DNA of 64,000 nt from a virus, in the IMG/VR virus record IMGVR_UViG_3300045988_147856, one strand, 5' to 3'. Positions 4,298-62,568 of the stretch are shown here, one piece after another; within the stretch, counting starts at the first letter, position 1; the number at the start of each line of letters is the position of its first letter. The position numbers were made by a program, and so were the translations under genes. The notes under the pieces are model-generated. The model did no database searches, was not told the DNA's origin, and was given only the letters and a program-made list of their open reading frames with translations.

Positions 4298-6532
4298 ATG
4301 AGGGTATTACTGTTGTTGCGCGGTAGTGCTGGGTGTGGTAAGTCAACATGGATTGAACAAAATGGACTTGAACCCTATACACTATCCGCCGACGAGATAA
4401 GGTTGATGTACGCTTCGCCCGCTTTAAATGTTTGTGGCGAAGAGTGTATAAGTCAGTTAAATGACACTAAGGTCTGGAAGACACTCTTTCAGATTCTTGA
4501 GTCTCGAATGGAGCGAGGAGAGTTCACCGTTATTGACGCGACGAACTCCAAAACTTCCGAGATGAAGCGCTATGCGGAACTTTGTAACCGTTATCGCTAT
4601 AGGATTTATTGTGTAGACTTCACCGACATTCCTATTGAGGAAACCAAAAGGCGAAATAAAATGCGACCTATAGTTAAACAGGTTCCTGAAACAGTAATCG
4701 ATAATATGTATGCTCGTTTCGCTACTCAGAAAATTCCGTCGGGGATAACCGTTATAAAACCGGATGAACTTTCAAGGGTGTGGTTCAAACCTATGGATGT
4801 TTCGGAATACGATGCGGTTCACTTTGTTGGAGATGTTCATGGCTGCTATACGGCACTCAAAGAAGCAATCAGGGATGTAACTGAGAAACCTAATGAGCTG
4901 TTTGTGTTCTGCGGAGACTATACTGACAGAGGAATTGAAAATGCAGAGGTAGTAAAGGAGCTTCTTCGCATCTATAAAGAACCGAATGTATATCTCATAG
5001 AGGGAAATCATGAGAAACATATGTGGGTTTGGGCTAATGACGGAACTACCGGGTCAAAAGAGTTTGAGATGCATACAAGAGCTCAGCTTGAAAGCGCTTC
5101 TTTTACTAAAAAGGATGTTCGCAAACTTTACAGAAGTTTCGGGCAGTGCGCCTATTATATATATCGTGGCAAAACTATATTGGCTACACACGGTGGTCTT
5201 AGTACGTTGCCTAACAATCTCACGCTGGTGGCTACCGACCAAATGATTAAAGGCTCTGGGAATTATAGCGACGCCGATGTTGTTGATCAGTCTTTCTGTG
5301 AAAATACTGACGCTTATCAGGTGCATGGGCACAGAAATCTTAAAGGAAATCCCATTCAGGCTTGCAGAGCCTTCAATCTTGAGGGGAATGTTGAGTTTGG
5401 AGGCTCTATAAGAGTTGTTAGTTTTGTTGGCAATGAGATAAAGGTGAGCGAGTTTAAAAACAATATATATTTACCGACTGAAGAGAGAATTGATTATACT
5501 GCAAAGATAAAAAAGAACGAGTCTGTTGCAGATGCTATTCTGGCTCTGAGAGGTAATAAGCAGGTAGTCGAGAAGCAGTTCGGTGATATCTCGTCTTTTA
5601 ACTTCTCAAAACAGGCTTTCTTTGACAAGATATGGGATGAGCAGACGATTAGGGCACGAGGTTTGTATATCAACATTCCCAAAGGAAAAATAGTCGCAAG
5701 AGGCTATACAAAGTTCTTTAATGTAAACGAGCGACCGGAGACAAAATTTGATATGTTACAGCACAAGCTTAAGTTTCCTGTAACTGCGTATGTTAAAGAA
5801 AACGGGTTTCTCGGGTTAGTTTCATATAACGAGATAGATGATTCGCTGTTTGTTACAACGAAATCTAATCCGGATGGTAATTATGCATCGTGGCTTAAAG
5901 AGATGATAGATAAGAAAATCCCTGTTGATACACAGCAGAAAATGAAAGAATTTTCAAGGGAGAACAATGTAACATTTGTGTTTGAGTGTATTGATATGCA
6001 GAGAGATCCACACATAATTGATTATCCGGAAAATCATCTTTTCTTGCTTGATATTGTTTACAACGAGTTGAAGTTCAAAAAGTTCAGTTATGACGAGCTT
6101 ATAAGTGTTGCAGACAAGTTCGGGCTCGAACACAAAGAGCGAGCTGTCGTAATTAACGATTGGCAGACATTCTTCGATTGGTATTACACGGTCACAGCAC
6201 CTGATTATCTGTATAACAACAGGCATATAGAGGGATTTGTCGTCGAAGATGCCGACGGTTATATGGTTAAGCTTAAACTTGCTTACTATAATCTCTGGAA
6301 ATACCTTCGCGGCATTTCCTACAAGGTTCTTAGACGCGGACATCTTGATGGCAAGGAAACTTCGTCTCTTACAACGCCATTAATGAATCAGTATTATGCG
6401 TGGCTTAAACGAATTTACGCAGAAACAGAGGATAAAGAGTCAATACCGCGTGATATCTGCTCGCTTAGAAAACTATTCTACGCATCGGACGAAGGAAGAA
6501 ATTTTACAAAGGAGGGGAACGATAATGATTGA
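4298..6532 (+). CDS. pnkp: Trifunctional RNA repair enzyme, Pnkp type (5'-kinase, metallophosphoesterase, RNA ligase-like adenylyltransferase)
   Basis: - Kinase: P-loop GSAGCGKST.
- Phosphatase motifs: GDVHGC, GDYTDRG, GNHE, THGG, HGHRN.
- Ligase motifs: VKENGFLG (KxNG), FVFECID, EGFVVED, MVKLK. Confidence 0.8.
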   Translation: MRVLLLLRGSAGCGKSTWIEQNGLEPYTLSADEIRLMYASPALNVCGEECISQLNDTKVWKTLFQILESRMERGEFTVIDATNSKTSEMKRYAELCNRYRYRIYCVDFTDIPIEETKRRNKMRPIVKQVPETVIDNMYARFATQKIPSGITVIKPDELSRVWFKPMDVSEYDAVHFVGDVHGCYTALKEAIRDVTEKPNELFVFCGDYTDRGIENAEVVKELLRIYKEPNVYLIEGNHEKHMWVWANDGTTGSKEFEMHTRAQLESASFTKKDVRKLYRSFGQCAYYIYRGKTILATHGGLSTLPNNLTLVATDQMIKGSGNYSDADVVDQSFCENTDAYQVHGHRNLKGNPIQACRAFNLEGNVEFGGSIRVVSFVGNEIKVSEFKNNIYLPTEERIDYTAKIKKNESVADAILALRGNKQVVEKQFGDISSFNFSKQAFFDKIWDEQTIRARGLYINIPKGKIVARGYTKFFNVNERPETKFDMLQHKLKFPVTAYVKENGFLGLVSYNEIDDSLFVTTKSNPDGNYASWLKEMIDKKIPVDTQQKMKEFSRENNVTFVFECIDMQRDPHIIDYPENHLFLLDIVYNELKFKKFSYDELISVADKFGLEHKERAVVINDWQTFFDWYYTVTAPDYLYNNRHIEGFVVEDADGYMVKLKLAYYNLWKYLRGISYKVLRRGHLDGKETSSLTTPLMNQYYAWLKRIYAETEDKESIPRDICSLRKLFYASDEGRNFTKEGNDND

Positions 6533-36440: not shown

Positions 36441-39400
36441 TTATTTTTTCATTTTCTTAAACTCATTAAGAATATCTGTAACGATTTGCTTGTGAGCTCT
36501 ACGCAGCTCGCCAACCGTCTTCTCGTCAGCCGATCCATTAATAACAACGTCGCCGACTGTAATATTACACGGAGACGCTATAGACACGGATGACGCAGCA
36601 GACAGAGACTTAATCATTGAGCCGAGCACCTCACCGGGCTGATTAGCCCACTTGTAAAGAAACTCACTTGCCTTGGCGTTGAACACCTTGTCGCCGTCAT
36701 TGAGGAACTTGTAGCGACCCTTGTCGGGGGAGCCGAGTATAAGCTCAAGACCCTTTTCGTCAATGTTGGCTATACCGCCTTTGGCATGGGGAGTACCCGT
36801 AGCGTAACCTTGAATATCAGACTTCCACACCCAACCGGTATACGCGCCGTTAACGCCTATGAGGACTTGGTTGCCCTTGACCTGATAAACGGTATACTTG
36901 CCTCCGGGGACATGAGATGCCATTTTTGCGTTGCCGCTTTGAGAAGAGAAGTGCGTTGCTGACTTCTTGATAGTCACCTTATCACCACGGTTGGGTCCAG
37001 ACTTCCGACTTGTATTAGAAGAACCGCTGGACTTGCCCGCATTTTTAGCGATGGTTTGCGCCGCATCTTTTGCACTCGTTCTCTGGGTTGCCCTCTCGCG
37101 AGCTTCACGCTCGGCGGCGGTCTCATACTTACCCTTGTTGTAGCCCGTCATATTGTCGAGCTTCATGCCGTAGTTGTCGTCGAGTAGACTATTGTAACGG
37201 TTAAGAGCCTCGTATGCGGCTTCCCATTTTTCTGTGATTGAACGATCAATTCCGTCGCCGTAAGCCCGGTTGTACTCAATCATCTCCTGATATAGTTGAG
37301 CATTACCGTTCTGCAAGTCTTCGATGGCTTGCCGACGAAGCTCATAGGCGTTGTCAAGGTAGTCCTCGATAGCTTCTATTTGCTTCTCGTAATACTGCGT
37401 CTGCATCTCTTCGAGGTCGTCGTACATCTTTTCAGCCTTGTCGAGTTCCTCATCGCGCTCAAAGTCGTTTAAGTCTTTCTTAGCGTCGGAGAGACTCTCT
37501 TCAAGTTCGAGACGGCGCTTCTGCGCTTCAACGGAGTCGTCTGCTTCGAGTTCAAGCAATTCCGCCTGTATATCTGTAACCTTCTTACGCTTCTCGCGGC
37601 GCTCTTCCTCTTTGTCTATCTGGTCGTAGTGTTCCTTGAGGAGGTCGCGCTGTTTGTCGTAGAAATCTTTTACATTATCTTGACGCTCTTTGAGAACATC
37701 TTTCTCATTGTTCTTCTCCTGCTTAAGCATATCAATGCGAAGGTCGATAAGGTCTTCAAGGGCGTCCTGTGAGTCCTTAGCCTGTTGTTCCTCAAACTTG
37801 TGGATAGCCTCTTCATTTTCACGCCACTCTTCGGCGTACTTGGTCTTGTCGTTGAGGTATTTCTTGTAGTTCGCCGCGAGCCATGTGTAATACTCGCCCT
37901 CATCGATTTTACCCATTTCGAGCTCATGCTTCTTGAGGTCAACAGCTTCATTCCAGTCGTCGAGGCGTTTCTGCTTCTTCCACTTGTAGATTTCCTCTTC
38001 GTACTTACGCCACTCTTCAGCATACTTCTTTTGGTTGTTGAGTTGCCTTTTGTAGTTAGCTTCAAGCCAAGCGTAGTATTGCTCTTCGGTAATCTGATCC
38101 ATTTCGAGCTGGTGCTTCTTAACAGCCAACATCTCGTTCCACGCTTTAAGGCGCGGGTCGCTGGAAGATGAAGAGGAAGAAGATGAGGAAGACGAGGACT
38201 TAGATTTAGAAGACCCACCGCTGTAGTAGGTGTCAAAGTCGCCGACGTTTTGAATACGTCCGACATTTGCCTTGTATTTTTCGAGCTGACTTATCTCCGA
38301 CTGAAGATTCTTTACGTTATCAGCGTATTTGTTATTATAATCGGAAGAGCTCTTGCCAGCCTGTGCCAACATTTTGTTGACCTCTGACTCAAACATATTA
38401 GAGAAGTTAATAGTAGTGAACTTACCGGCTTTGATTTGAGCGAGAGCTTGCTTAAGGACATTAAGTACGGCGGCAAATTTAATGCTCGGTTTTATCGCGT
38501 CATCGAATATAGCCTGAGACAAAACCGCTAATGTGCCTCTGAATTTGTACATCGCTAACTGGCTTTGCTTTAAATTTATCTCTTCTTGAATACTCGTTTG
38601 AATGGCTTGGATTTGTGTCATAACCATTTTTTTGCGAGCATCAGTAGCTAAGTGTATCGCGCCAGTCTCATCAATTTCCAAAACCTCTGCATATTTAGAG
38701 TTCTTTTCAATAAGAGACAGATATGTTTGTAGCGATATTTCGCCCGTATTGTTTTGCTCTTCCATAGCCGCAGTTAAATCATCGTAAGTGGCTTTAACCG
38801 CAGTCATGGCGGTAGACAACTCTTTAGCTGAGTCTATATTGCCCGACACGCCGTCCAAACTCTTACCAAAAGAGGTTGACAAGTTATCGGCTGCTTTTGA
38901 ATAGCTTTCCGAAACTCTCTCACTTTCATTAACGAACTCTTGGGCTATCTCACCAATTGAACCAAAGAACTCAAAAATTTGAGAAGAGTCTATACCGTCA
39001 ATCTGGAAAACCGAAGACAGGAAGTCCTGTACTTCATCTGAAAGACTACCAAATTTATCTTCAAACTGAGAGCGGAACTCATCGCCCGTGAGAGATAAGA
39101 ACTTATTTATAGACTCTTTTGCTTCATCGGAGGCGTCCTCCCAGTTGCCAAAAATTTTGCTGAGGTCTGCAAGGTCTTGCATCTCACTAACGGTTTGAGC
39201 GTATTCATCAGTAGCCGCCGTGGAGTTGCCAAAGCTTGCGGCAAGGGCATCTATACCACCCGCAAATTCAACAAAAGCATCGTACTCTTCTTTATCCGGG
39301 ATAGCTTTATGCAAAGCTTTTTCAAAGTCTTCCATGCTCTTTGAGCTCTTGTCGTCACCCACATAGCGAGCGACTCGCTCAAGTTCAGATACTGCACTGT

Positions 39401-40613
39401 CGTTAACGGCAATACTTGAGAGCTTTGTATGAAGAGCCTCAGCCTTTTGGTCTGCATCGAGAAGCGCAAACTTCATTTTTTCAGCAAACTCAATCGCTTC
39501 AGGATTTTGATATTTTTCGACCTTTGTAACAGATTTTGAAAGAGAGGCTTCAAGATCTGCGATTTCTTTCTCAAGACGTGCTTTCTCCGAAGAGAGTGTC
39601 TCTAAATCATAACCTTGTTTATAGAGGTTGTTGTATTCCTCTTTTGCCTTATTGAGCTGCTTCAGGGTTGCTAAATCTTTATCATAGCTTGACTCGCCAA
39701 AAAGGCTGTATTCAGATTTAAAATAAGTTCGCCGTGCGCTATTTTCATCTTTATAATGGGTATACCAGCCCCACGCCTTTTCGTCGTCTTTGCGCGCCTG
39801 CTCTTCTTCGATTTCTTGCTTTTTCTGATAATACTCAAGCTGAAGTGACAACTCTTGGTTTTGCTTTTTAAGCTCTTCGGTTTCAGCCTTATCCGCCAGC
39901 GACGGATTCTTTATCGCTTCAAGCTCGACGAGGCGATCTTTTACTTTCTTTAACGCCTCTTCCTGATTGTTCAACTCTTCAGTTGTTTCCTTGTATTGAG
40001 TGCGAGACGCTTCAGCTTTTTCATCAAGCTTATCCTGCATATGGATAAGATAGTCAAATCCCTCAATTAGCTTCTGTATCGCAAACTGAGCAACAACAGT
40101 GACAAGCATACCTGCGGCGGCTTTGAAGATATTAAGACCGACGGCGGCGAGTTTTGATTTAATACCCGTAGCCTCTATTTGGGCGGCGGCGTTCTTCTGA
40201 TATTTTACGAAACCATCCCATGTGGGCTCGCCGTCTTTGCAAGTGTCGATATACTCCTGAACGGATTTGCTCATTTTATCATAAACTTCAGGAGCTTGTT
40301 CGAGAGACGCTTTTTTATATTGATTGATGTCGCTCTTGTTTTTCTTTCCAGCATCAGTCTCTAAATCAACAGACTCGCTTATCATTGCAGCAAGTTCTTT
40401 TCGAGTCTCTTTAGCGCTATTTTTTACCTTACTTATCTCTTGACGCACAGCGGAACCCCAAGACGCAGCGTGAGTAATACCACTCTTAAATGTGCCATCC
40501 CAGTTAATACCGGCTGTCAGCTCTTGGTATTTTTTCTTTATATCATCGAGTTGGGCTCCAAAAATAGCTAAATCACCAAATGAAGTACCGCTGCCCTTAG
40601 TAGTGAATATCTT
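36441..40613 (-). CDS. Tape measure protein, C-terminal part (putative exon 2); 5' boundary approximate
   Basis: - The frame is open from about 40613 (KIFTTKGSGTSFGDLAIFGAQ..), upstream of the GTG listed at 40448.
- Long coiled coil.
- Tandem 45-aa repeats and a poly-Ser run.
- C-terminal SH3-like region. Confidence 0.75.
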   Translation of the reverse strand, partial: KIFTTKGSGTSFGDLAIFGAQLDDIKKKYQELTAGINWDGTFKSGITHAASWGSAVRQEISKVKNSAKETRKELAAMISESVDLETDAGKKNKSDINQYKKASLEQAPEVYDKMSKSVQEYIDTCKDGEPTWDGFVKYQKNAAAQIEATGIKSKLAAVGLNIFKAAAGMLVTVVAQFAIQKLIEGFDYLIHMQDKLDEKAEASRTQYKETTEELNNQEEALKKVKDRLVELEAIKNPSLADKAETEELKKQNQELSLQLEYYQKKQEIEEEQARKDDEKAWGWYTHYKDENSARRTYFKSEYSLFGESSYDKDLATLKQLNKAKEEYNNLYKQGYDLETLSSEKARLEKEIADLEASLSKSVTKVEKYQNPEAIEFAEKMKFALLDADQKAEALHTKLSSIAVNDSAVSELERVARYVGDDKSSKSMEDFEKALHKAIPDKEEYDAFVEFAGGIDALAASFGNSTAATDEYAQTVSEMQDLADLSKIFGNWEDASDEAKESINKFLSLTGDEFRSQFEDKFGSLSDEVQDFLSSVFQIDGIDSSQIFEFFGSIGEIAQEFVNESERVSESYSKAADNLSTSFGKSLDGVSGNIDSAKELSTAMTAVKATYDDLTAAMEEQNNTGEISLQTYLSLIEKNSKYAEVLEIDETGAIHLATDARKKMVMTQIQAIQTSIQEEINLKQSQLAMYKFRGTLAVLSQAIFDDAIKPSIKFAAVLNVLKQALAQIKAGKFTTINFSNMFESEVNKMLAQAGKSSSDYNNKYADNVKNLQSEISQLEKYKANVGRIQNVGDFDTYYSGGSSKSKSSSSSSSSSSSSSDPRLKAWNEMLAVKKHQLEMDQITEEQYYAWLEANYKRQLNNQKKYAEEWRKYEEEIYKWKKQKRLDDWNEAVDLKKHELEMGKIDEGEYYTWLAANYKKYLNDKTKYAEEWRENEEAIHKFEEQQAKDSQDALEDLIDLRIDMLKQEKNNEKDVLKERQDNVKDFYDKQRDLLKEHYDQIDKEEERREKRKKVTDIQAELLELEADDSVEAQKRRLELEESLSDAKKDLNDFERDEELDKAEKMYDDLEEMQTQYYEKQIEAIEDYLDNAYELRRQAIEDLQNGNAQLYQEMIEYNRAYGDGIDRSITEKWEAAYEALNRYNSLLDDNYGMKLDNMTGYNKGKYETAAEREARERATQRTSAKDAAQTIAKNAGKSSGSSNTSRKSGPNRGDKVTIKKSATHFSSQSGNAKMASHVPGGKYTVYQVKGNQVLIGVNGAYTGWVWKSDIQGYATGTPHAKGGIANIDEKGLELILGSPDKGRYKFLNDGDKVFNAKASEFLYKWANQPGEVLGSMIKSLSAASSVSIASPCNITVGDVVINGSADEKTVGELRRAHKQIVTDILNEFKKMKK
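37790..38215 (-). repeat. Internal tandem duplication and poly-Ser run within the tape measure
   Basis: WNEMLAVKKHQLEMDQITEEQYYAWLEANYK.. and WNEAVDLKKHELEMGKIDEGEYYTWLAANYK.. repeats, preceded by a run of 12 Ser. Confidence 0.6.
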
Positions 40614-40673
40614 TCATATTATACTGCTTTGGGGATAAGCAAAATAATATTATAACAAAGGGAGTAGATACAA

Positions 40674-41183
40674 ATGGCAAAAGTGTTTTTTTGCCCACAT
40701 TGTGGAAATGATTTAAACCTGTCAAGCAGCTCCGACCTTATACAATATAAAAATGGTGTATGCCAATATTGTGGGTTTGTGGGAAGTTTTTTGGATGTTG
40801 GACTGAACTATGATGAGTTTATCGACCAGCTCGGAGATTATTTGACAAAAATAAATCAGGACGATACCTTTGAAAATATGTGGTACGCCCAAATAAAGAT
40901 GTTCAAAATAGACCAAGATTCGCGCTTCGACAAAGAAGCGTCGCTTAAATCAATGAAGGACAAGGATAAAGAATTACTTGAAGCACACTTGCAGTTTATA
41001 GCCAAAAGAAACGCTGAAAAGCAACGCGAAGCCGCCGCAAAACTCCACTGTCCAACCTGCGGGTCAACTAACATTAAAAAACTCGACGTCGTTGACCGCG
41101 CAGTATCTGTGGGGTTCTTCGGTATCTTTTCTAATAAGATAAACAAGAGCTTTAAGTGCAAGGACTGCGGGTGTACTTGGTAA
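40674..41183 (+). CDS. Double zinc-ribbon protein (cargo gene)
   Basis: CPHCG...CQYCG at the N-terminus and CPTCG...CKDCG at the C-terminus. RBS AAAGGGAG. Confidence 0.5.
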   Translation: MAKVFFCPHCGNDLNLSSSSDLIQYKNGVCQYCGFVGSFLDVGLNYDEFIDQLGDYLTKINQDDTFENMWYAQIKMFKIDQDSRFDKEASLKSMKDKDKELLEAHLQFIAKRNAEKQREAAAKLHCPTCGSTNIKKLDVVDRAVSVGFFGIFSNKINKSFKCKDCGCTW

Positions 41184-41210
41184 TTAGCATTTGATGGCAA
41201 AAACTATAAT

Positions 41211-41265
41211 AGCCGCCAGCAATATTGACGAACTAATTAATGATACTGGCGGCTATATTTTTTTT
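41211..41265. terminator. Bidirectional terminator between the zinc-ribbon gene and toxN
   Basis: AGCCGCCAG...CTGGCGGCT followed by a T8 run. Confidence 0.6.
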
Positions 41266-41267
41266 AA

Positions 41268-41807
41268 TTATGTGTTTGAGTTATATTCACGGGATTTGCT
41301 TTCAAGAAATTTGAAATCGACGCACCGACACGAAACTTTATCATTCGGGTAATTAAGCTTTAATTGATAAAGCCGAAAAGCCTTTTTCTCAATACCTAAT
41401 TCGTTAATCTTAGATATCTCTTTCTTCAATAAGTCTATGTATTTTCCTTTTTCGGCAGAGGATGGAAATGTCCGATACTGGTCGATATCGCCATAATCTA
41501 AAGTTTTAAGCATCGTTTTTGGCAAAGGGAACATATAGTTTAAGTTAACAACAGCAATCAACCGATCCGGAGCTCCTGAAGAGCCGCCCGGGAGGTAAAT
41601 TTTTTGAAAATCTAAGGCGTCGCGCATACTATGATGACGAGACTTGGGGTGAGATACCTGTGTAACATACACCAGCTCATCCATCTCAAAGAGAGTACCA
41701 AAGAACGGCTTAAATTTAGTCTCGCCATAATCTGAGTGTGGGATTCTGGGCTCAAATCCTCGAAGGTAGTTCAAATAATCCTCGCTAATAATTACCCAAT
41801 TTTGCAT
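41268..41807 (-). CDS. toxN: Type III toxin, AbiQ/ToxN-family endoribonuclease
   Basis: 179 aa. YLNYLRGFEPRIP...FFGTLFEMDELVYVTQVSHPKSRHH...NLNYMFPLP...CVDFKFLESKSREY parallels AbiQ/ToxN along the full length. The RNA repeats lie upstream. Confidence 0.8.
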   Translation of the reverse strand: MQNWVIISEDYLNYLRGFEPRIPHSDYGETKFKPFFGTLFEMDELVYVTQVSHPKSRHHSMRDALDFQKIYLPGGSSGAPDRLIAVVNLNYMFPLPKTMLKTLDYGDIDQYRTFPSSAEKGKYIDLLKKEISKINELGIEKKAFRLYQLKLNYPNDKVSCRCVDFKFLESKSREYNSNT

Positions 41808-41847
41808 TTTCGCTCCTATAAAAAATGGTCACATTTTAAATGCGACC

Positions 41848-41920
41848 ATTAATACGATTTTGGTAGGATTCGTAACCTCTATTAATACGATTTTGGTAGG
41901 ATTCGTAACCTCTATTAATA
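41848..41920 (-). ncRNA. toxI: Type III antitoxin RNA (ToxI/antiQ-like), 2.2 tandem 33-nt repeats
   Basis: - Identical units at 41848-41880 and 41881-41913, plus a 7-nt partial third unit.
- RNA unit: AGAGGUUACGAAUCCUACCAAAAUCGUAUUAAU.
- Hairpin ATGGTC..GACCAT (41825-41846) separates the repeats from the toxin RBS. Confidence 0.75.
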
Positions 41921-41948
41921 GTATACATAAAAGGATCGAAAATGTCAA
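41920..41948 (-). promoter_or_regulatory. Promoter of the toxI-toxN unit
   Basis: TTGACA, 17 nt spacer, TATACT on the minus strand, ending right at the first repeat. Confidence 0.6.
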
Positions 41949-41985
41949 CTCAAAAAAATAATAAATTTTAGCCAGTCGCGTCCTC

Positions 41986-42183
41986 TTATTTCCCTTGATT
42001 ATTATTGTCTCTTTCACAAAAGGATAAGCCACGCAGATTTGCTGTAGAAATAAGACTTCCTGAATTAGAAACATTAGCTCTAACCTTGGCGTTTGCCGAT
42101 TCTATAAGATTTTTGTCCCTGTTACGAACAGGTGTAGAACGTTTTAAAACACCACCCATAAGCCTTTTCAACCTTTCAAACAA
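41986..42183 (-). CDS. Small basic 65-aa protein (cargo gene)
   Basis: Promoter TTGGCT-17-TATAAT, then RBS GGTGGAG and a TTG start. Confidence 0.4.
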   Translation of the reverse strand: MFERLKRLMGGVLKRSTPVRNRDKNLIESANAKVRANVSNSGSLISTANLRGLSFCERDNNNQGK

Positions 42184-42309
42184 TTTTCTCCACCTCTATT
42201 ATATAATGAAACAATGCAACAGCCAAGAATAATCGCGCCTTATACGAAATATTGTTCTCAATCTTTTATTAATCGTAGTCACATTAAACTCCTCTTTTTC
42301 CAAATAATT

Positions 42310-42588
42310 TTAGCCTACAACGACCGCCGCAAACCAGCTAATTATTATGTCTATAAGAAATATTGCCTTTGCGCTGATTCGCACTCGGTTGCTCTTCCCG
42401 AGAGGATATCTTATTATCTCTACAAGAAGAGAGCCGCCGAATACAGCAAAGACTATTATGGAGTATATTCCCATAGGTGTAGTACCGGCAATCTTCACTG
42501 TTGCGGCTATTAAGAAGACCACCACCAGCACCACTAATATTGATGCGGCGAAGGATAGGTATATCTTATCGTAGTGAGAAGGGGTCAT
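42310..42588 (-). CDS. Three-TM small membrane protein (cargo gene)
   Basis: 92 aa with three hydrophobic helices; RBS AAAGGA. Confidence 0.5.
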   Translation of the reverse strand: MTPSHYDKIYLSFAASILVVLVVVFLIAATVKIAGTTPMGIYSIIVFAVFGGSLLVEIIRYPLGKSNRVRISAKAIFLIDIIISWFAAVVVG

Positions 42589-42616
42589 TTCTTACATTCC
42601 TTTCGTTCTAAATAGC

Positions 42617-42651
42617 AAAACAGTGCCCTACAAAAAATAGGGCACTGTTTT
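42617..42651. terminator. Bidirectional intrinsic terminator
   Basis: AAAACAGTGCCCTA...TAGGGCACTGTTTT. Confidence 0.7.
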
Positions 42652-42664
42652 ATTATGCCTTTTA

Positions 42665-42693
42665 TTGACTTTTGCTTTTGATAATAATATAAT
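42665..42693 (+). promoter_or_regulatory. Sigma-A-type promoter
   Basis: TTGACT, 17 nt spacer, TATAAT. Confidence 0.6.
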
Positions 42694-42760
42694 AGATGAT
42701 AGTGGATCCACCGTTGTAATTGTTTAACGGTTTCACGGTTAAAAAGACGGTTGCTGATAT

Positions 42761-42813
42761 CCCGCGAGGAGCGGAGTGCAGCAAGCATACCACCTCGTGG
42801 GGAGATCTTTTTT
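42761..42813 (+). promoter_or_regulatory. Terminator/attenuator-like hairpin in the leader, just before the small ORF's RBS
   Basis: CCCGCGAGG...CCTCGTGGG followed by AGATCTTTTTT. Confidence 0.45.
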
Positions 42814-42826
42814 CTCAAGGAAGGTG

Positions 42827-42931
42827 ATGTGTATAACTTTACTCTTTAATGTGATAGGGGCAGTGGCTTCTATTACAACAATAATTATGTTTGTGATATA
42901 CGTATACGAACATCATATAGAGAAAAAGTAA
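42827..42931 (+). CDS. 34-aa hydrophobic peptide, type I toxin-like
   Basis: RBS AAGGAAGG. MCITLLFNVIGAVASITTIIMFVIYVYEHHIEKK has one TM helix and a charged tail. Confidence 0.5.
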   Translation: MCITLLFNVIGAVASITTIIMFVIYVYEHHIEKK

Positions 42932-43057
42932 GCCGTCTATAGCGAGTAGACGACTTACTAATTCGAGAATGTAAATTCTCACTTATAAAGTTGATACTAC
43001 AGCAACCGTCTGGATGTACTACTGGGGAGATGTTTGTTCACAGCAAACGTCTCCTTA
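42921..43057 (-). ncRNA. Predicted convergent antisense sRNA overlapping the 3' end of the small-peptide gene (type I antitoxin-like)
   Basis: The minus-strand promoter at 43064-43092 points into the region. A minus-strand terminator (stem arms 42958-42947 and 42939-42928, then UUUUU) overlaps the ORF stop codon. Confidence 0.4.
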
Positions 43058-43063
43058 GTTATT

Positions 43064-43092
43064 ATTATATCGATGTCTTCAAATTAAGTCAA
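43064..43092 (-). promoter_or_regulatory. Sigma-A-type promoter for the antisense RNA
   Basis: TTGACT, 17 nt spacer, TATAAT on the minus strand. Confidence 0.55.
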
Positions 43093-43161
43093 TAAGTTTA
43101 AAAAATTTTACATTTTTTGAAACAATATCTAAAAATTTTGAAGATGCACTTATCTTTTTTG

Positions 43162-44202
43162 TTAATCTTTATCTTTGTCTATCTTATGAACCACCACGGG
43201 ACTTTCGTCGTCGTCAACACCAACGGCAATAGGTGATATCCATTTTAATATAAGCTTGCGAGTAGATGGTTCTTTCATAGAACCAGTCCAGAAATTATGC
43301 CAATGCCCGCGTCTGATATGAGGGCGGGGAGAAGCATGGGTTCCGGTGGACACCGAAGACTGTTTATACTGCACTCGCTTGTATTGCCTAAAAGACGCAC
43401 CAACACGAACTCCGACATCCCACTTGCGAATCTCGCTATACTTATCCTTGATGCGGCTTGGCGATCTACGGGTTATTGTTTTCTGCTCAGGATTCTCTTC
43501 TATATCAGCATTTGACGCGCAGATATAAAGGACAACCTGTAACATCTTGCTCATAAACGAGACAAGAGTATCGGCAATATCCATATCCAACATAAACTTT
43601 TGAGCCTTGTCGTATTGCCCCGACTCGTAAAGATATTTATATCCCTCTTGACGAGTATATTCAAGATTGTCATAAAGGTTCTCTTGATTAAGATGTATCG
43701 GAAACGCATACGGCATATTGTTCTTATTTAGACACAAGAAGCGTAGCTCTCTGTCCTGTGTGTCCGTATCATACTCCATATGCACAAAGGCTCCAATGAC
43801 CTTATCGTCGCCAAAGTAAAGATTATTGAACTGTATATAGAAACATTGATAGGGGAGGTGCGACAAAACTTCGCTCGGTATATCGAGACAATCTTCTTGT
43901 GCGAATAGCACCTCTTCCATCTCGGGGTCAAGGACAAATACTTCTTTGCTGAGTCTCCACGGCGCGAGAGCGGCGAGTGTAGCCCCAATACGCACCACGT
44001 CCGACTCGTTCTTAAAGTCAGTCTCGCTCTCCACAACAGCCTTTGCCGCCGCTATAGGCACATAGCAATCACTATCCCAACGCGGCAGACCGCCTTGTCC
44101 GTTATGTGAATGAATATCGGACAGCAAGTCCCACGCTTTAGGACATAACCCAGTTGCTTGCTTTAACAAGTCTAACGGCGGGTAGTCTTTGACCTTTCCC
44201 AT
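43162..44202 (-). CDS. Orphan 346-aa protein adjacent to the intron core; no recognised nuclease or RT motif
   Basis: Own promoter and RBS AGAGGTG. The basic C-terminus reads SPRPHIRRGHWHNFWTGS. Confidence 0.55.
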   Translation of the reverse strand: MGKVKDYPPLDLLKQATGLCPKAWDLLSDIHSHNGQGGLPRWDSDCYVPIAAAKAVVESETDFKNESDVVRIGATLAALAPWRLSKEVFVLDPEMEEVLFAQEDCLDIPSEVLSHLPYQCFYIQFNNLYFGDDKVIGAFVHMEYDTDTQDRELRFLCLNKNNMPYAFPIHLNQENLYDNLEYTRQEGYKYLYESGQYDKAQKFMLDMDIADTLVSFMSKMLQVVLYICASNADIEENPEQKTITRRSPSRIKDKYSEIRKWDVGVRVGASFRQYKRVQYKQSSVSTGTHASPRPHIRRGHWHNFWTGSMKEPSTRKLILKWISPIAVGVDDDESPVVVHKIDKDKD

Positions 44203-44233
44203 TAATTACACCTCTGCTATATTTCTTAGATAT

Positions 44234-44261
44234 ATTATAGCAGAAGCCAAGAAATTTTCAA
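44234..44261 (-). promoter_or_regulatory. Sigma-A-type promoter for the 346-aa gene
   Basis: TTGAAA, 16 nt spacer, TATAAT on the minus strand. Confidence 0.6.
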
Positions 44262-44275
44262 TCATTTTTGCGCCC

Positions 44276-44600
44276 ATCCCCAACGGCAGCGCGTACCGAC
44301 CTACTGCGAACAACGAACAGGTTATCCGTTGATAATATAAGGGATTGTTCGCTCATCCCCGGAGTCGAGCACACCATATTGATCCGTAGACCAACCGACC
44401 ATTGTGCTCTGTGAACATTCTCGTTGCTTTTACAACGAGCTTTGCTGCGGACTTTCCTATCTCAGCCTTATTACCGTACCGACTCGCTTTCACGGTCGCC
44501 GCCATAATATTACTACTATGGGTTGGTAGCCTTGCATACGGATTACCCCGTGCCACATTATCAAGCAGCAATGCGCTTCTTACACGCACCAGTATCAGTC
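44276..44600 (-). ncRNA. Group I intron catalytic core (P, Q, R, S elements; P6, P8 and P9-like hairpins)
   Basis: - P-like: UAUGGCGGCGACCGUGAAAG (44506-44487).
- Q-like: GUCCGCAGC (44452-44444).
- P6 hairpin (44439-44420).
- R-like: GUUCACAGAGCACA (44416-44403).
- P8: UUGGUC-UACG-GAUCAA (44394-44379).
- S-like: UAUGGUGUGCUCG (44378-44366).
- GAGCAC pairs with GUGCUC to form P7. Confidence 0.65.
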
Positions 44601-46252
44601 GTTTTTCTTAACACTCTCTTGTCATTGTCGAGCAATGACTCGTTCAGCGTCACCGCCAGAGCGTTTCGTGGGTATATTCCTCCGATAATTGATAAGCCCA
44701 CGTTTTTGATAGATGTAACAACGCCGACTATTGCAGGAAGCAACAGTTTGCACTTGGCGAGTGCATCCGCAAATTGGAGTGCGCCGTTTGTCAACTTTAC
44801 AAAAGTAACAACGGCATTACTGTTAAGAAGATTTGTAGACAAAGACTCAAAAGAAGCCCTTGCTCTTGCGATATTTGCCTCAATACCCTGTGAGTAAGCA
44901 TCGTACTTCTCCATAGCCGTTCCGGCGGAATCAGCACTTATACCCGCATACTCCATAGCCTTACCATAGTTCTCCATGAGGGTAAGGACGTTTTCTTTCT
45001 GTCTTGTAACACCAAGCGCGGTCGCAATGGCACTCTGCTCGACCTCAGTCAAAGACGACCACTTAGCCTGTACGTCATCAAGGACATCTGTGAAGTCTCT
45101 GAATTCACCTAAGTTATCACGAAGACGTATGCCAACTCTTGTCAATATGCGCTCGTAATCGTTTAGCGACTCGCCGTCGTCATCAACAAGCTTATTAAGC
45201 TTAACATTTGAGTAACGAGCGAACATGGTCTTAAACGCATTACCGATAGACGCCATGTCTTGCTGAGTAACTTCGCCAACAGCGGCAAGGTAGCCCAGAA
45301 GCGTGTCCATTTCAACACCGGCAAGACGCGCCGAGTTTGCAGTCTTACTCATACCTTCAGCAAGACCACCAACGCTGACGGCGGCAGCCATATCGACAGC
45401 AGACAGCTTATCTGCTATAGACATCGCGTCATTGATCTCAACCTTATAGCCCTTAATCGCCGAGGTAAGATACTGAGTCGCCTCCGCCGAATCAATCAGA
45501 CCTATCTTGGAAAGAACGGTACTGGTTTTTATCAGTTCGTTTGTGTCTTCAAGAGAATAACCCTGTCTAAGCCAATCGTCGGCGGCGGCGGCTACTTCAG
45601 AAGTGACAGCACCAAGCTCCTGAGCCATTTCAGAATAACTCGCCACGAGCTCTTTAGTGCGATCACGGTTGTAACCTGTAACCATAGAAAGGTTGACAAC
45701 AGCCGAGTCAAGCTTGACAACATTATCGTAGACCTCTTTAAGCTGTTGCACCGAAAAACCAGCTATAGCTGTTACTGCCTTTTGCTTAATATTTGTCTTT
45801 AATGCACTGCCAAGCTTATCAAAGACATTTGTTGTTTCGACGCCAGCCTTAATGGCATCGAGCTTTAAATCGTTGAATGTCTCCTGAAACTCTTTTGCGG
45901 TTATATTTCCGCTGTCCAAGGCGCTTTGGAGCCCCTTGAAACCACCCATAAGACCAGATTTTTCAAGCTTATCGCCATATTTGTCCATGTACTTGTAGAG
46001 TTGGTTATAAGCTCGTAAAAACTTGCCGGAGTCTTGGGTTATTGACTTGGTGATTTTCTTATTAGTGGACTGAACCTCTTTCTCTATACTATCTGTATCA
46101 AGTGAGAACTTGAGTTTCGTAACTCCGCTTTTATTAATCTCTTTGGCTATACTCTGGATGTCTTGCAGTATCTGTCGTCCGGATTCGCCGCTTATTTTGC
46201 CGCCACCAGATACGCCAAATTTTAACTCAATTACGTTTTTGTTATCGGACAT
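44561..46252 (-). CDS. Tape measure protein, N-terminal part (putative exon 1 plus read-through into the intron)
   Basis: TP901-type TMP core pattern (MAQELGAVTSEVAAAADDWLRQGYSLEDT) and a hydrophobic segment LLLPAIVGVVTSI. The last roughly 15-40 codons are probably intron sequence. Confidence 0.8.
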   Translation of the reverse strand: MSDNKNVIELKFGVSGGGKISGESGRQILQDIQSIAKEINKSGVTKLKFSLDTDSIEKEVQSTNKKITKSITQDSGKFLRAYNQLYKYMDKYGDKLEKSGLMGGFKGLQSALDSGNITAKEFQETFNDLKLDAIKAGVETTNVFDKLGSALKTNIKQKAVTAIAGFSVQQLKEVYDNVVKLDSAVVNLSMVTGYNRDRTKELVASYSEMAQELGAVTSEVAAAADDWLRQGYSLEDTNELIKTSTVLSKIGLIDSAEATQYLTSAIKGYKVEINDAMSIADKLSAVDMAAAVSVGGLAEGMSKTANSARLAGVEMDTLLGYLAAVGEVTQQDMASIGNAFKTMFARYSNVKLNKLVDDDGESLNDYERILTRVGIRLRDNLGEFRDFTDVLDDVQAKWSSLTEVEQSAIATALGVTRQKENVLTLMENYGKAMEYAGISADSAGTAMEKYDAYSQGIEANIARARASFESLSTNLLNSNAVVTFVKLTNGALQFADALAKCKLLLPAIVGVVTSIKNVGLSIIGGIYPRNALAVTLNESLLDNDKRVLRKTTDTGACKKRIAA

Positions 46253-60470: not shown

Positions 60471-60544
60471 TGGCGGCGCTTGCAGGATTTGAACCTACAC
60501 TATCAGAGCCAAAATCTGATGTGCTGCCCTTACACCAAAGCGCT
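60471..60544 (-). tRNA. tRNA-Gln (UUG)
   Basis: - Hand-folded cloverleaf.
- Anticodon stem UCAGA/UCUGA with loop UUUUGGC.
- T-loop GGUUCAAAUCC.
- Encoded CCA.
- Positions 1:72 are an A-C mismatch. Confidence 0.75.
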
Positions 60545-60858
60545 GTATTGCAGGACTCGGGCGGATATCGCTTGCATAATACCCGCCCAAAGTTCTGCTT
60601 AAGGAGGAATGAAATTTTGAAGCCGCTTGCAAGCAGCCGACAAAATGGAGTTGTCTAATTGAACCGCCCATATGGGCGGTATTTGTAAAACTAAGGAAAC
60701 GTCGTAACGCTTCCTATACAAAGGCGAATGAGCCTTTTGATAACCTAAGTTAAAATCCAAGTCACGTCTTTTCGTCAGCCATCGTTTTACCGTCCGCAAA
60801 CTTGTGCGCCCGATTCGTCCCGGAACGCCCGATACTTAACTTCTCGCGCTTGGATTTT

Positions 60859-60933
60859 TGGAGCATCCTGCGTGACTCGAACACGCAACCCGCTGCTTAC
60901 AAGGCAGCCGCTCTACCATTGAGCCAAGGATGC
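60859..60933 (-). tRNA. tRNA-Thr (UGU)
   Basis: - Canonical 75-nt cloverleaf.
- Acceptor GCAUCCU/AGGAUGC.
- Anticodon loop CUUGUAA.
- T-loop UUCGAGU.
- Encoded CCA. Confidence 0.85.
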
Positions 60934-61042
60934 ATATACTCGGATTTGATATCGCTGGGACACATCATAGAGAGGTGCGGATAGTCTGACGTACCGAGCT
61001 TGTGGCGCAACCCCACACGTCCCCGCTGTACACACGGGATAT

Positions 61043-61118
61043 TGGTTGCGGAGGCGGGACTTGAACCCACGACCTTTAGGGCATGAACCTAATGAGCTAC
61101 CAACTGCTCCACTCCGCT
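61043..61118 (-). tRNA. tRNA with a CAU anticodon (Met; Ile2 or initiator not excluded)
   Basis: - D arm GAGC AGUUGGUA GCUC.
- Anticodon loop UUCAUGC.
- T-loop UUCAAGU.
- Encoded CCA.
- Positions 1:72 are an A-A mismatch. Confidence 0.75.
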
Positions 61119-61413: not shown

Positions 61414-62568
61414 CTAACACGCCTGAGCTAAAGTTTCGCGAATAATTTCAGAGGTCATCTTTTTCCTCGACAAATCAAGGTGTCCATATATATTACAAGT
61501 CATCTTTATATCGGCGTGACCCATCCAATCTTGGACGTCCTTGAGTGAACAACCTTTGGCGAGAAGAAGGCTCGCACAACTATGTCTTAGATCGTGGAAT
61601 CTTATATGCGGGAGATTATATTTTCTCAATAGGTCTCCGAATTTGTGCGATATATATGACGGGTCATACATTGCGCCATTCGCCCATTTGAAGATATAAT
61701 CATTCTCCACATAGGTGTCTCCAAAGAACTCTCTGTTCTTCTGTTCCTCTTCTTTGAGCTGAAGCAGTAGCTCTCTAATTTCAGGAAACAGCGGAAACGA
61801 CCGATAACTTGATTTGTTTTTGGTTTTGTCTTTCTCGACAACCTTGGTTGACATAGAGACCGTGTGGCGTATAAGGATAGTATTTGTGTCAAAATCAATG
61901 CTTTGCCACTGTAGACCCAAAACCTCACTGCGCCGCAGTCCATACATGACTGTAGTTTGGATGAGCGGATGCAAAGGTTCGTCCTTTATGGTCTCAAGCA
62001 GAGTGTTAATTTCACTGGCGTTATACCACTCATACTCCCGTCTCTCAAGTTTTGGGAGTCTCACGAGTTCACAAGGATTTGTACTTATCAGCCTGTGTCG
62101 CATAGCCTCCTTAAAGGCAAGCTGAAGAACATTCTTGTGCAGACGAAGGGTTTTAGGTGATAGACCGCCATTCCCATCTTTTCTGCCGTGGGTCGCCTTA
62201 TAGTCAAAATATTGCTGTATATTGTCAAGGTTGGCATCCACTAATTTTATTTTGTGTTCCTCAAAATACGGTTGAACATGAGAATCAACTATAACCTTAT
62301 AACCGTCCCAAGTTACAGTATCTATAAACGGCTTAGTCTCCGTGAGCCACTGGTCTAAGTAGTCCGAGATAAGTATATTGGGTTCATAAATCAGCTGAGC
62401 ACTTTCATACTCGCTAATTATTGACCGCATAGCCGCCTCAGCTTTACGCAGATTATTCTTTACTTCATAACCTGTGTAAACCCACTTCTGCTTACGCTTT
62501 CCAGTGTTGTCTACGAAATTCAGAACGGCATAATATTTGCCGCGTTTTGCTTGCAAGCTTCCTGTCAA
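61414..62568 (-). CDS. int: Tyrosine integrase
   Basis: SAM-like N-domain and a catalytic C-terminus (HDLRHSCASLLL...GHADIKMTCNIYGH). Confidence 0.9.
   Translation of the reverse strand: MTGSLQAKRGKYYAVLNFVDNTGKRKQKWVYTGYEVKNNLRKAEAAMRSIISEYESAQLIYEPNILISDYLDQWLTETKPFIDTVTWDGYKVIVDSHVQPYFEEHKIKLVDANLDNIQQYFDYKATHGRKDGNGGLSPKTLRLHKNVLQLAFKEAMRHRLISTNPCELVRLPKLERREYEWYNASEINTLLETIKDEPLHPLIQTTVMYGLRRSEVLGLQWQSIDFDTNTILIRHTVSMSTKVVEKDKTKNKSSYRSFPLFPEIRELLLQLKEEEQKNREFFGDTYVENDYIFKWANGAMYDPSYISHKFGDLLRKYNLPHIRFHDLRHSCASLLLAKGCSLKDVQDWMGHADIKMTCNIYGHLDLSRKKMTSEIIRETLAQAC

Follow-up and report, generated by a model that had tools for sequence, protein, structure and literature searches.

The question raised by positions 41,268 to 41,948 of IMG/VR virus record IMGVR_UViG_3300045988_147856 is whether a phage can carry a complete type III toxin–antitoxin (TA) operon within one of its tail genes, and what kind of DNA would accommodate it there. 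Here, the whole stretch of 64,000 nucleotides (nt), referred to below as the window, was analyzed together with homologous loci and related phage contigs. The combined evidence makes it very likely that the locus is an intact ToxIN-family type III TA operon, which a temperate phage of gut Clostridia harbors as a moron (accessory DNA under its own promoter), with the cassette lying in a probable group I intron of the tape-measure protein (TMP) gene.

The toxin, its promoter and its antitoxin array

The operon and its immediate downstream neighborhood comprise the following features, given with the class to which each was assigned:

41268–41807, minus strand: toxN/abiQ-family endoribonuclease toxin gene, 179 amino acids (aa), assigned from the open reading frame (ORF), the profile match and the predicted fold
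41813–41817, minus strand: AGGAG ribosome-binding site (RBS), 5 nt upstream of the ATG, read from sequence
41824–41850, minus strand: predicted intrinsic terminator or attenuator hairpin, 12 base pairs (bp) and a U-run, between repeats and toxin
41848–41920, minus strand: toxI-like antitoxin array, 2.2 × 33 nt (TRF period 33, 100% matches)
41920–41948, minus strand: sigma-70-type promoter of the toxIN operon, TTGACA-17-TATACT, matching 11 of 12 consensus positions
41209–41256, no strand assigned: 11-bp inverted repeat (ATAGCCGCCAG / CTGGCGGCTAT) that separates the convergent toxN and Zn-ribbon genes and, to judge by its sequence, likely serves as a terminator in both directions

The initial annotation had likened the 179-aa ORF to AbiQ/ToxN on the basis of short peptides, all of which are present in it, and had proposed a profile search as a check. 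That search was positive, with a match to ToxN_toxin (PF13958; E = 2.5e-40, 138.7 bits against a cut-off of 25, profile positions 3–159 of 159) and another to the PADLOC AbiQ model (3.8e-18), and the predicted fold agrees. An AlphaFold model, obtained from an alignment with 31 homologues, reached a mean pLDDT of 95.8, and the top four Foldseek matches of this predicted, not solved, structure in the Protein Data Bank (PDB) were 4ATO, 2XD0, 7D8O, and 4GLK, with TM values of 0.72–0.80 and a probability of 1.00. CptN followed at TM 0.53 and MazF-type toxins after it; since this ranking puts ToxN/AbiQ far ahead, the toxin belongs to the ToxN/AbiQ branch rather than to CptN or TenpN. Sequence comparison with the PDB likewise retrieved 7D8O (E. 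coli ToxN) and 2XD0 (Pectobacterium ToxN) at E of about 1e-9, and several of the 120 homologues of the toxin carry the NCBI name ToxN/AbiQ.

The active site of ToxN_Pa consists of Tyr29, Lys33, Thr52, Ser53, and Lys55 (PMC5086642). Its Lys33 and Thr52 align with Lys33 and Ser52 of the window toxin, which are invariant or nearly so in the clade described below; the latter position is Thr in ToxN and Ser in AbiQ, where it corresponds to the catalytic Ser51. Lys55 aligns with Lys55, yet most clade members have Gln at that position. Two differences weigh against a simple equivalence with the characterized enzymes: the active-site Ser53 of ToxN_Pa is replaced by His53, and Tyr29 lacks a directly aligned tyrosine, its counterpart probably being the clade-invariant Tyr27, which lies two residues off, beside an alignment gap. 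Because of His53 and the two-residue tyrosine shift, the predicted active site is similar to that of ToxN_Pa but not identical.

Upstream of the toxin, the initial annotation had read a promoter, 2.2 perfect tandem 33-nt repeats with an A-rich tract, and a short hairpin, in the promoter, repeats, attenuator, toxin layout of ToxIN and AbiQ/antiQ. This layout is present and is kept in homologous loci. The promoter was found as described, on the toxin strand, and TTGACA/TATACT hexamers with the same 17-nt spacing also precede the homologous loci L005, L009, L013, and L016. TRF bore out the repeats, which comprise two full units (41913–41881 and 41880–41848) and one partial unit, with A-tracts (CCAAAAUCG) at 41894–41891 and 41861–41858; the array ends 40 nt upstream of the toxN ATG on the same strand. 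The window contains exactly two copies of a 23-nt core of the unit, whereas 100 shuffles gave an expectation of 0.00. The hairpin before the RBS also stood, while its extent, originally given as 41825–41846, was corrected to 41850–41824 (12 bp followed by a T-run). Its stem sequence varies among homologous loci yet remains complementary, and it is a predicted rho-independent terminator between the repeats and toxN.

Comparison of 13 distinct unit variants gave the clade consensus AGGUUxCGAAxCCUxxCAAAAUCxxxUUAAUxG, in which AGGUU, GAA, CCU, CAAAAUC, and UUAAU are invariant. A stem ACGA/UCGU (A6-U25, C7-G24, G8-C23, and A9-U22) is kept in all 13 variants, with compensatory double changes at two of its four pairs (A6-U25 to G-C and C7-G24 to U-A, seen in UGCGA...UCGCU and UAUGA...UCAUG). 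A second, crossing stem between AGG (positions 1–3) and CCU (positions 12–14) would possibly give a ToxI-like pseudoknot. As both segments never vary among the 13 variants, this stem draws no support from covariation and is only inferred, a point that counts against the ToxIN reading.

In length and copy number, the window array lies inside the range of characterized functional arrays, namely ToxI of ToxIN_Pa (36 nt × 5.5), ToxI_Bt of ToxIN_Bt (34 nt × 2.9), and antiQ (35 nt × 2.8), the last of which needs at least 1.8 repeat copies (PMC5086642). ToxIN_Bt (Bacillus thuringiensis pAW63, 4ATO) and ToxIN_Pa (Pectobacterium atrosepticum, 2XD0) share with the window the toxin fold (TM 0.73–0.80), the Pfam family, the operon order of promoter, tandem repeats, terminator, and toxin, and the A-rich tract inside the repeat. 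They differ in that their toxins are only 21–24% identical to that of the window, their repeat sequences are unrelated to it, and they are plasmid-borne, whereas the window operon is prophage-borne and its processing and triangular assembly are predicted by analogy. AbiQ/antiQ of Lactococcus lactis (4GLK), which has a similarly low copy number and to which the PADLOC AbiQ match points, shows TM values of 0.74–0.80 at 16% identity; it differs further in being plasmid-borne and in having an abortive-infection phenotype that was shown experimentally.

Homologous loci were examined in DNA fetched around toxin homologues. There, the 33-nt unit, at 2.1–6.1 copies, precedes toxins that are 53–73% identical to the window toxin, and a common order of TTGACA/TATAnT promoter, 33-nt unit, U-run hairpin, RBS, and toxin was observed. 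The loci, with the identity of each toxin to that of the window, include:

L002, bacterial chromosome: 68% identical, 6.1 repeat copies
L005, bacterial chromosome: 61% identical, 4.0 repeat copies
L016, bacterial chromosome: 58% identical, 3.1 repeat copies
L009–L012, prophage tail-fibre/holin module: 59% identical, 3.1 repeat copies
L013, short contig: 73% identical, 3.1 repeat copies
NZ_CP148656.1, C. perfringens plasmid: 53% identical, 3.2 repeat copies

The plasmid toxin is WP_195962030.1, and RefSeq names close relatives with the same repeat 'type III toxin-antitoxin system ToxN/AbiQ family toxin'. The array is conserved with the toxin wherever upstream sequence is available, and the contigs without an array break inside it. 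Among these, the Logan/ENA short-read contigs L001, L003, L004, L008, and L020 end about 35–72 nt upstream of toxN, inside the repeats. Such contig ends are assembly breaks, and surveys based on such assemblies therefore under-count antitoxin arrays and lose their upstream context. Because the same promoter, 33-nt unit, and hairpin precede the 53–73% identical toxins elsewhere, the window ToxIN joins a known family, and we assign it to a 33-nt-repeat ToxN/AbiQ clade of Clostridia. The loci of this clade (plasmid NZ_CP148656.1; the metagenome-assembled chromosomes L002, L005, and L016; the prophages L009–L012) have the same unit, promoter, and terminator as the window and carry 2.1 to 6.1 copies; in contrast to the placement proposed for the window locus, none of them lies inside an intron. 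Taken together, the family profile, the predicted fold, the repeat array and its conservation with the toxin, and the predicted terminator assign the window locus, at the level of sequence, to the ToxIN-family type III TA systems.

The split tape-measure gene and its candidate intron

The ToxIN operon had initially been placed inside the cargo of an intron within a tail gene. The features relevant to this placement are listed below, with exon and intron labels following the proposed model:

44696–46252, minus strand: proposed tape-measure exon 1, 519 codons, matching the tape-measure family phrog_4211 (E = 2.2e-67)
40611–44695, minus strand: proposed group I intron, 4085 nt, with conserved boundaries, holding the ToxIN cassette as cargo
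44268–44695, minus strand: structured RNA core, about 430 nt, 98–100% identical among relatives
44679–44667, minus strand: proposed internal guide sequence (IGS) GAAUAUACCCACG, in the RNA core
44601–44597 with 44400–44396, minus strand: proposed helix P3, in the RNA core
44409–44404 with 44372–44367, minus strand: proposed helix P7, in the RNA core
40611–40636, minus strand: proposed intron 3′ end, with AUCCCC at 40636–40631, about 20 nt, and a terminal G at 40611
36441–40610, minus strand: proposed tape-measure exon 2, 1389 codons, beginning ATA TTC ACT AC...

The tape-measure gene is split at the same site in all 18 relatives, defined here as the IMG/VR contigs whose TMP N-terminal half is 94–100% identical to that of the window. 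In the window, the annotated 563-aa ORF (46252–44561) extends 44 codons into the proposed intron, and the annotated second tape-measure ORF (40448–36441) encodes 1335 aa. The exon 2 frame is open from 40613, with its first in-frame start 55 codons downstream in the window lineage, so that exon 2 would not be readily translated alone; the peptide IFTTxGxG and the nucleotides GATATTCACTAC at its beginning are conserved across all lineages. Many uninterrupted tape-measure proteins of 1200–2500 aa match the first piece and then, within tens of residues, the second, and since both pieces are thus consecutively homologous to single proteins, they derive from one gene.

Ligation of 44696 to 40610 is in frame and would yield a predicted protein of 1908 aa with the junction ...AACGUGGGC|AUAUUCACU..., formed by the exon 1 end AAAAACGUGGGC and the exon 2 start AUAUUCACUACU. 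Seventeen uninterrupted tape-measure homologues align across this predicted junction in a single high-scoring segment pair, and the junction peptide KNVG|IFTTKGSGTSFG is matched directly by P0288 (...FVST-LITTKATGTSMG) and P0372 (SIGVFTLNGS); P0121 covers exon 2 only. An intron-less allele was not found among more than 100 near-identical TMP N-terminal proteins, all of which are 563 aa long, barring a few variants of 562 aa and some fragments at contig ends. Many TMP homologues with 40–50% identity and lengths of only 600–770 aa (among them P0242, P0244, P0245, P0247–P0249, P0253, P0254, and P0261) end soon after PF10145, so that a split of the tape-measure gene at this position may be common. 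One such case was confirmed in the distant contig L058, where the split goes with a probable group I intron (RF00028 match below the gathering score).

The interval keeps its boundaries in 17 of the 18 relatives (in L037, no 3′ motif was found), the insert between them varies in gene content, and its length ranges from 1517 nt in L036 to 5610 nt. At the 3′ end, AUCCCC-N20-G stands before the invariant ATATTCACTAC in 17 of the 18, and in the window the terminal G40611 directly precedes the invariant AUAUUCACUAC. AUCCCC (40636–40631) is complementary to GGGGAU at 44281–44276, and both G40611 and AUCCCC are conserved in all three divergent 3′-end lineages. At the other end of the interval, the RNA core (98–100% identical) is more conserved than the adjacent tape-measure coding DNA, which is 91–99% identical among the 18 relatives. 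From about 44705 downstream, the changes that fall in the 563-aa frame are non-synonymous, yet RNA pairing is preserved, which argues for selection on the RNA rather than on the protein. The hairpin GUCAUUG/CAAUGAC (44639–44621), with two compensatory and two wobble changes that give S→P, N→D, and D→G in the frame, illustrates this pattern.

A 13-helix model with two crossing helices (P3 and P7), derived from the same sequences on which its pairing was scored, is 99.8% paired over 20 sequences, including the 83%-identical L039. In total, 13 pairs show changes in both partners, compared with 2.9 ± 1.0 in shuffles, and slid controls gave 31–53% pairing. These both-side changes are distributed over P3, P6, and P8 (three together), P2/P2a/P2b (five), P9 (three), and hairpin f, a P5c-like arm (two), while P7 never varies among the aligned sequences. 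The helices were assigned as P3, P6, P7, P8, P9, a branched P2, and a P5abc-like junction. An independent fold by RNAalifold agreed on P1, the branched P2, P6, P7, P8, and P9, and introduced a three-way junction of P5abc type that has GUAA and GAAA tetraloops, an A-rich UAAUAAG bulge, and two further compensatory changes; an initial hairpin 'e' (CGG/CCG) was discarded in favor of the better-supported P5a-like helix from RNAalifold, with which it conflicts. Similarity to the J6/7-P7, J8/7-P7′, and P4′ segments of RF00028 was noted in GUUCACAGAGCAC...AAUAUGGUGUGCUC and AAGUCCGCAGCAAAG. An exact 19-mer scan of IMG/VR for copies of the RNA with greater divergence gave only the same 18 contigs and left L039 (83%) as the sole useful outgroup; L058 and L060 do not align with the window RNA at the nucleotide level. 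At the equivalent position, the L058 RNA has a full-length RF00028 match (26.6 bits, E = 7.9e-5, below the gathering score of 50), and a P1/P10 search in L058 gave several mediocre solutions.

In the window, the proposed IGS pairs with the predicted ligated exons CGUGGGC|AUAUUC through 12 Watson–Crick pairs and one mismatch, a C·A at the splice site, and this pairing is the best of four solutions in an exhaustive in-frame P1/P10 search. On balance, we consider it probable that the interval is a spliced group I intron. The initial placement is thus supported by the conserved ends, the RNA covariation, and the predicted in-frame ligation, with splicing itself standing as a prediction and with no group I call from Rfam for the window RNA.

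The absence of an Rfam call is one of several that weigh against splicing and speak instead for two separately translated tape-measure proteins, in which case the interval would be a moron island headed by a relic or by an unrelated structured RNA. The window RNA matches neither group I nor group II models in Rfam, even at E ≤ 10 on 241–551 nt. The 5′ splice site has C·A (C44696 opposite A44673) rather than the canonical U·G, and no in-frame alternative combining U·G with the conserved terminal G was found. The structure model offers no confident position for P4 and P5, and no homing endonuclease was recognized. Chance alone would yield about 0.2 IGS pairings of such quality by our estimate, and given the three other near-equal, slightly weaker solutions, the complementarity alone could be fortuitous. 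The interval also holds at least two sense-strand intrinsic terminators (42959–42927 and 41850–41824), the inverted repeat at 41256–41209, and an antisense gene, so that cis-splicing would need read-through or antitermination; an extended −10 box (TGTTATAAT, 40657–40649) lies just upstream of AUCCCC, a position compatible with trans-splicing. In the L021/L022/L036 lineage, moreover, an in-frame ATG stands three codons before the proposed exon 2.

Separate translation of the two pieces is difficult to reconcile with an RNA that outdoes the surrounding coding DNA in conservation and whose compensatory changes are non-synonymous in the overlapping frame. It would also leave the exon 2 peptide conserved despite the 55 codons without a start in the window lineage, and would make a coincidence of the residue-for-residue agreement between the predicted junction and the uninterrupted P0288 and P0372. 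Furthermore, L058, a distant relative with the same layout, has its RF00028 match in the same position. We therefore regard the absence of splicing as unlikely and retain the spliced group I intron, for which late transcription may possibly reach exon 2 via read-through, antitermination, or trans-splicing.

Other identities of the RNA were tried and rejected. A group II intron, suggested by GTGCG at 44587 just before the stop of the TMP N-terminal ORF, has no domain V/VI near the 3′ junction and no Rfam group II match at E ≤ 10, and RNA conservation and covariation start about 110 nt upstream of GTGCG. An RNase P-like RNA, suggested by a GGAAAGUCCGCAGC motif, found no match in Rfam.

Cargo turnover among related phages

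Apart from ToxIN, the interval contains three annotated genes, listed here with the integrase of the window:

43162–44202, minus strand: AcrVA2-like protein, 346 aa, directly after the RNA core, with its own promoter at 44261–44234
42310–42588, minus strand: predicted membrane protein, 92 aa, present in most relatives, with a weak DUF1129 match
40674–41183, plus strand (antisense to the intron): double Zn-ribbon ORF, 169 aa, adjoining the proposed 3′ splice site, with weak Zn-ribbon matches
61414–62568: integrase, the basis for assigning a temperate lifestyle

The integrase and the occurrence of the TMP N-terminal half on bacterial contigs of up to 1.2 Mb and in a Clostridium metagenome-assembled genome indicate that the window phage is temperate, in line with the initial annotation. 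The window also encodes a terminase, a DNA polymerase, a primase/helicase, NrdD, and an endolysin, and a megablast search of 11 kb against GenBank phages returned no match.

ToxIN is intact in 4 of the 18 relatives (L026, L027, L028, and L030), with 2.2 repeat copies in L027 and 3.2 in the other three, and the window copy is 98–99% identical to these four phage copies. In L036 (12595–12903), the toxI region is retained and toxN is truncated after about 165 nt. In the remaining relatives, the ToxIN slot is taken by a 402-aa membrane protein, by a 218+137-aa pair, or by nothing. The 402-aa protein (L024, 15280–16488; L025, 14279–15488) has N-terminal transmembrane segments and is split into 197+214 aa in L025, and the overlapping 218+137-aa gene pair (L034, 15074–16136) looks like a two-gene TA or defence module; the alternative cargo ORFs of the relatives gave no significant match in Pfam, PADLOC, or NCBIfam.

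The 346-aa ORF matches AcrVA2 (PDB 7CI1) at E = 2.6e-10 over residues 64–311, as well as phrog_6160, a family without an assigned function. It is present in 13 of the 18 relatives, the others having a 283-aa ORF or different ORFs instead. The Zn-ribbon ORF is more constant in position, being found at the same place in 17 of the 18 relatives (it was not found in L036) and also in L058 (11446–12078), L004 (826–1305), and L020 (677–1171), with lengths of 144–221 aa across all these phages. Its N-terminal part is variable and its C-terminal ribbon conserved, and it persists where the TMP N-terminal half is only 49% identical; the protein might help to maintain the intron, have a regulatory role, or act in a way similar to restriction-alleviation proteins. 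In L004 and L020, whose ToxN proteins are 66% and 56% identical to that of the window, the order is toxN, reverse Zn-ribbon gene, and TMP C-terminal half. In L058, which has SPbeta-type Yom/Yon tail genes and the 49%-identical TMP N-terminal half, the order is N-half, RNA, cargo, reverse Zn-ribbon gene, and C-half.

Elsewhere in the window, a 744-aa fusion of polynucleotide kinase/phosphatase and RNA ligase is encoded at 4298–6532 on the plus strand (phrog_8238, E = 4e-222), an RNA-repair enzyme type used by T4 against host anticodon nucleases. Such a fusion could in principle reseal the 2′,3′-cyclic-phosphate and 5′-OH ends made by ToxN-type RNases. Three tRNA genes (60474–61118, minus strand; Rfam tRNA, 57.8–69.1 bits) lie between the terminase-side genes and the integrase.

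The role of the cassette and its unusual setting

A course of action for the cassette can be outlined by analogy with the characterized ToxIN_Pa, ToxIN_Bt, and AbiQ/antiQ systems. In the lysogen, the cassette promoter would transcribe the repeats constitutively, and possession of this promoter makes the cassette independent of the late tail operon during lysogeny. The terminator would pass only a fraction of the transcripts to toxN, thereby keeping the antitoxin RNA in excess. ToxN would then cut the precursor in the A-tract into 33-nt units, each of which would fold through the ACGA/UCGU stem, possibly with the AGG/CCU pseudoknot, and bind ToxN in an inactive RNA–protein complex. A feature that fits this scheme less well is the copy number, as 2.2 copies allow the release of only one complete 33-nt unit per transcript. 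Upon superinfection by a phage that shuts off host transcription, the labile antitoxin RNA would no longer be replenished, and the freed ToxN would cleave cellular and phage RNA, so that the infection aborts. As a speculation, late transcription in the prophage's own lytic cycle, which runs sense across toxI, might add antitoxin.

Alternatively, the module could act mainly in addiction, stabilizing the prophage or the cassette through post-segregational killing, as cells that lose it keep the stable toxin and lose the labile RNA. There is precedent in ToxIN_Bt, which promotes plasmid retention (PMC4615649), and the cassette sits in a region of very high gene turnover, where self-stabilization would pay. 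The L036 allele, with toxI retained beside a truncated toxN, matches the sequence of events to be expected if prior loss of the antitoxin kills the cell. The absence of the cassette from most close relatives, however, implies that it is readily lost or replaced, and in known ToxIN systems addiction and abortive infection are not mutually exclusive. As the main function, addiction thus appears somewhat unlikely, while as a role it is a compatible alternative to abortive infection that the L036 allele fits.

The array might also serve counter-defence, with toxI as a decoy that neutralizes ToxN homologues of hosts or plasmids and with the linked toxin incidental. Phage TE offers a precedent in its pseudo-ToxI (PMC3475682); an AcrVA2-like anti-defence gene lies in the same island; and ToxN homologues encoded by chromosomes and plasmids of Clostridia come with the same 33-nt unit, which makes cross-neutralization conceivable. 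For this purpose the repeats alone would suffice, yet the toxin ORF is intact, 98–99% conserved among the phage copies, and keeps its conserved active-site residues, which renders the decoy quite improbable. That the cassette is a decaying, non-functional remnant, as the truncated copy in L036 might suggest, is the least credible reading, as the window copy has an ORF without interruption, repeats that match perfectly, and a promoter, a terminator, and an RBS that are all intact, and is 98–99% identical to four other phage copies. The reading that we carry forward is an intact TA operon, whose role may be defence through abortive infection, addiction, or both.

Type III TA systems had initially been described here as host or plasmid systems, a view that needs correction, since phage copies were already reported: toxIN on a Clostridium botulinum converting phage or plasmid prophage by Blower et al. 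2012 (PMC3401426, where the name is printed as both D-1873 and D-783), and tenpIN in viruses (PMC12283969). The C. botulinum locus is likewise a type III TA on a temperate phage of Clostridia; its toxin homologue is 28% identical (tblastn), and it lies near the neurotoxin cluster and not, as in the window, in a tail gene or intron. With phage-borne toxIN known since 2012, the ToxIN described here is best classed as a new member of the known ToxN/AbiQ family.

The setting has partial parallels as well. Group I introns were described in tape-measure genes of Bacillus cereus-group prophages by Tourasse and Kolsto 2008 (PMC2504315), that is, in the same type of gene in Firmicutes prophages, and some of them lack a functional homing endonuclease. 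The B. cereus-group introns are compact, the ribozyme being accompanied by at most one homing endonuclease gene, whereas the interior of the window-type element holds a variable cargo of several genes, 1.1–5.2 kb in all, that includes an antisense gene and has promoters and terminators of its own. IStrons of Clostridioides difficile, in which a group I intron is fused to IS200/IS605, also have a 5′ ribozyme and a large non-endonuclease cargo before the 3′ splice site. Their cargo is a transposon and not a set of defence or anti-defence cassettes, and the window element contains neither TnpA nor TnpB. In limited literature searches, we found no description of multi-gene, rapidly exchanging intron cargo.

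What is unusual about the locus is where it lies: an essential tail gene is interrupted by an intron-like element, and the hypervariable interior of this element places a defence cassette next to an anti-defence gene. Outside the stretch bounded by the conserved ends of the element in the tape-measure gene, prophages of near-identical sequence show hardly any differences. We give even chances to the proposal that a functional group I intron in the tape measure acts as a 'safe harbour' for a fast-evolving arsenal island of SPbeta-like phages. If so, exchangeable cassettes of 1–5 kb could be loaded into the middle of the tail operon without damage, because the whole interval would be spliced out. 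The cassettes observed include ToxIN, the AcrVA2-like anti-CRISPR gene, genes for membrane proteins, and candidate TA pairs, all equipped with promoters and terminators of their own, and an antisense gene is tolerated as well. In that case, ToxIN would be the first type III TA demonstrated to move as the cargo of an intron, and among the first defence systems in general.

For the ToxN/AbiQ family, the window locus adds a defined 33-nt-repeat clade of gut Clostridia to the few phage-borne type III examples. Its natural copy-number variants (2.2, 3.2, and 6.1) and the toxin-truncated, antitoxin-retaining allele can be used to address questions of repeat number and order of loss. For the phages themselves, splicing of the interval would provide a route by which self-splicing introns carry accessory genes beyond homing endonucleases, and would make the intron interior a place to seek new phage defence and counter-defence genes.

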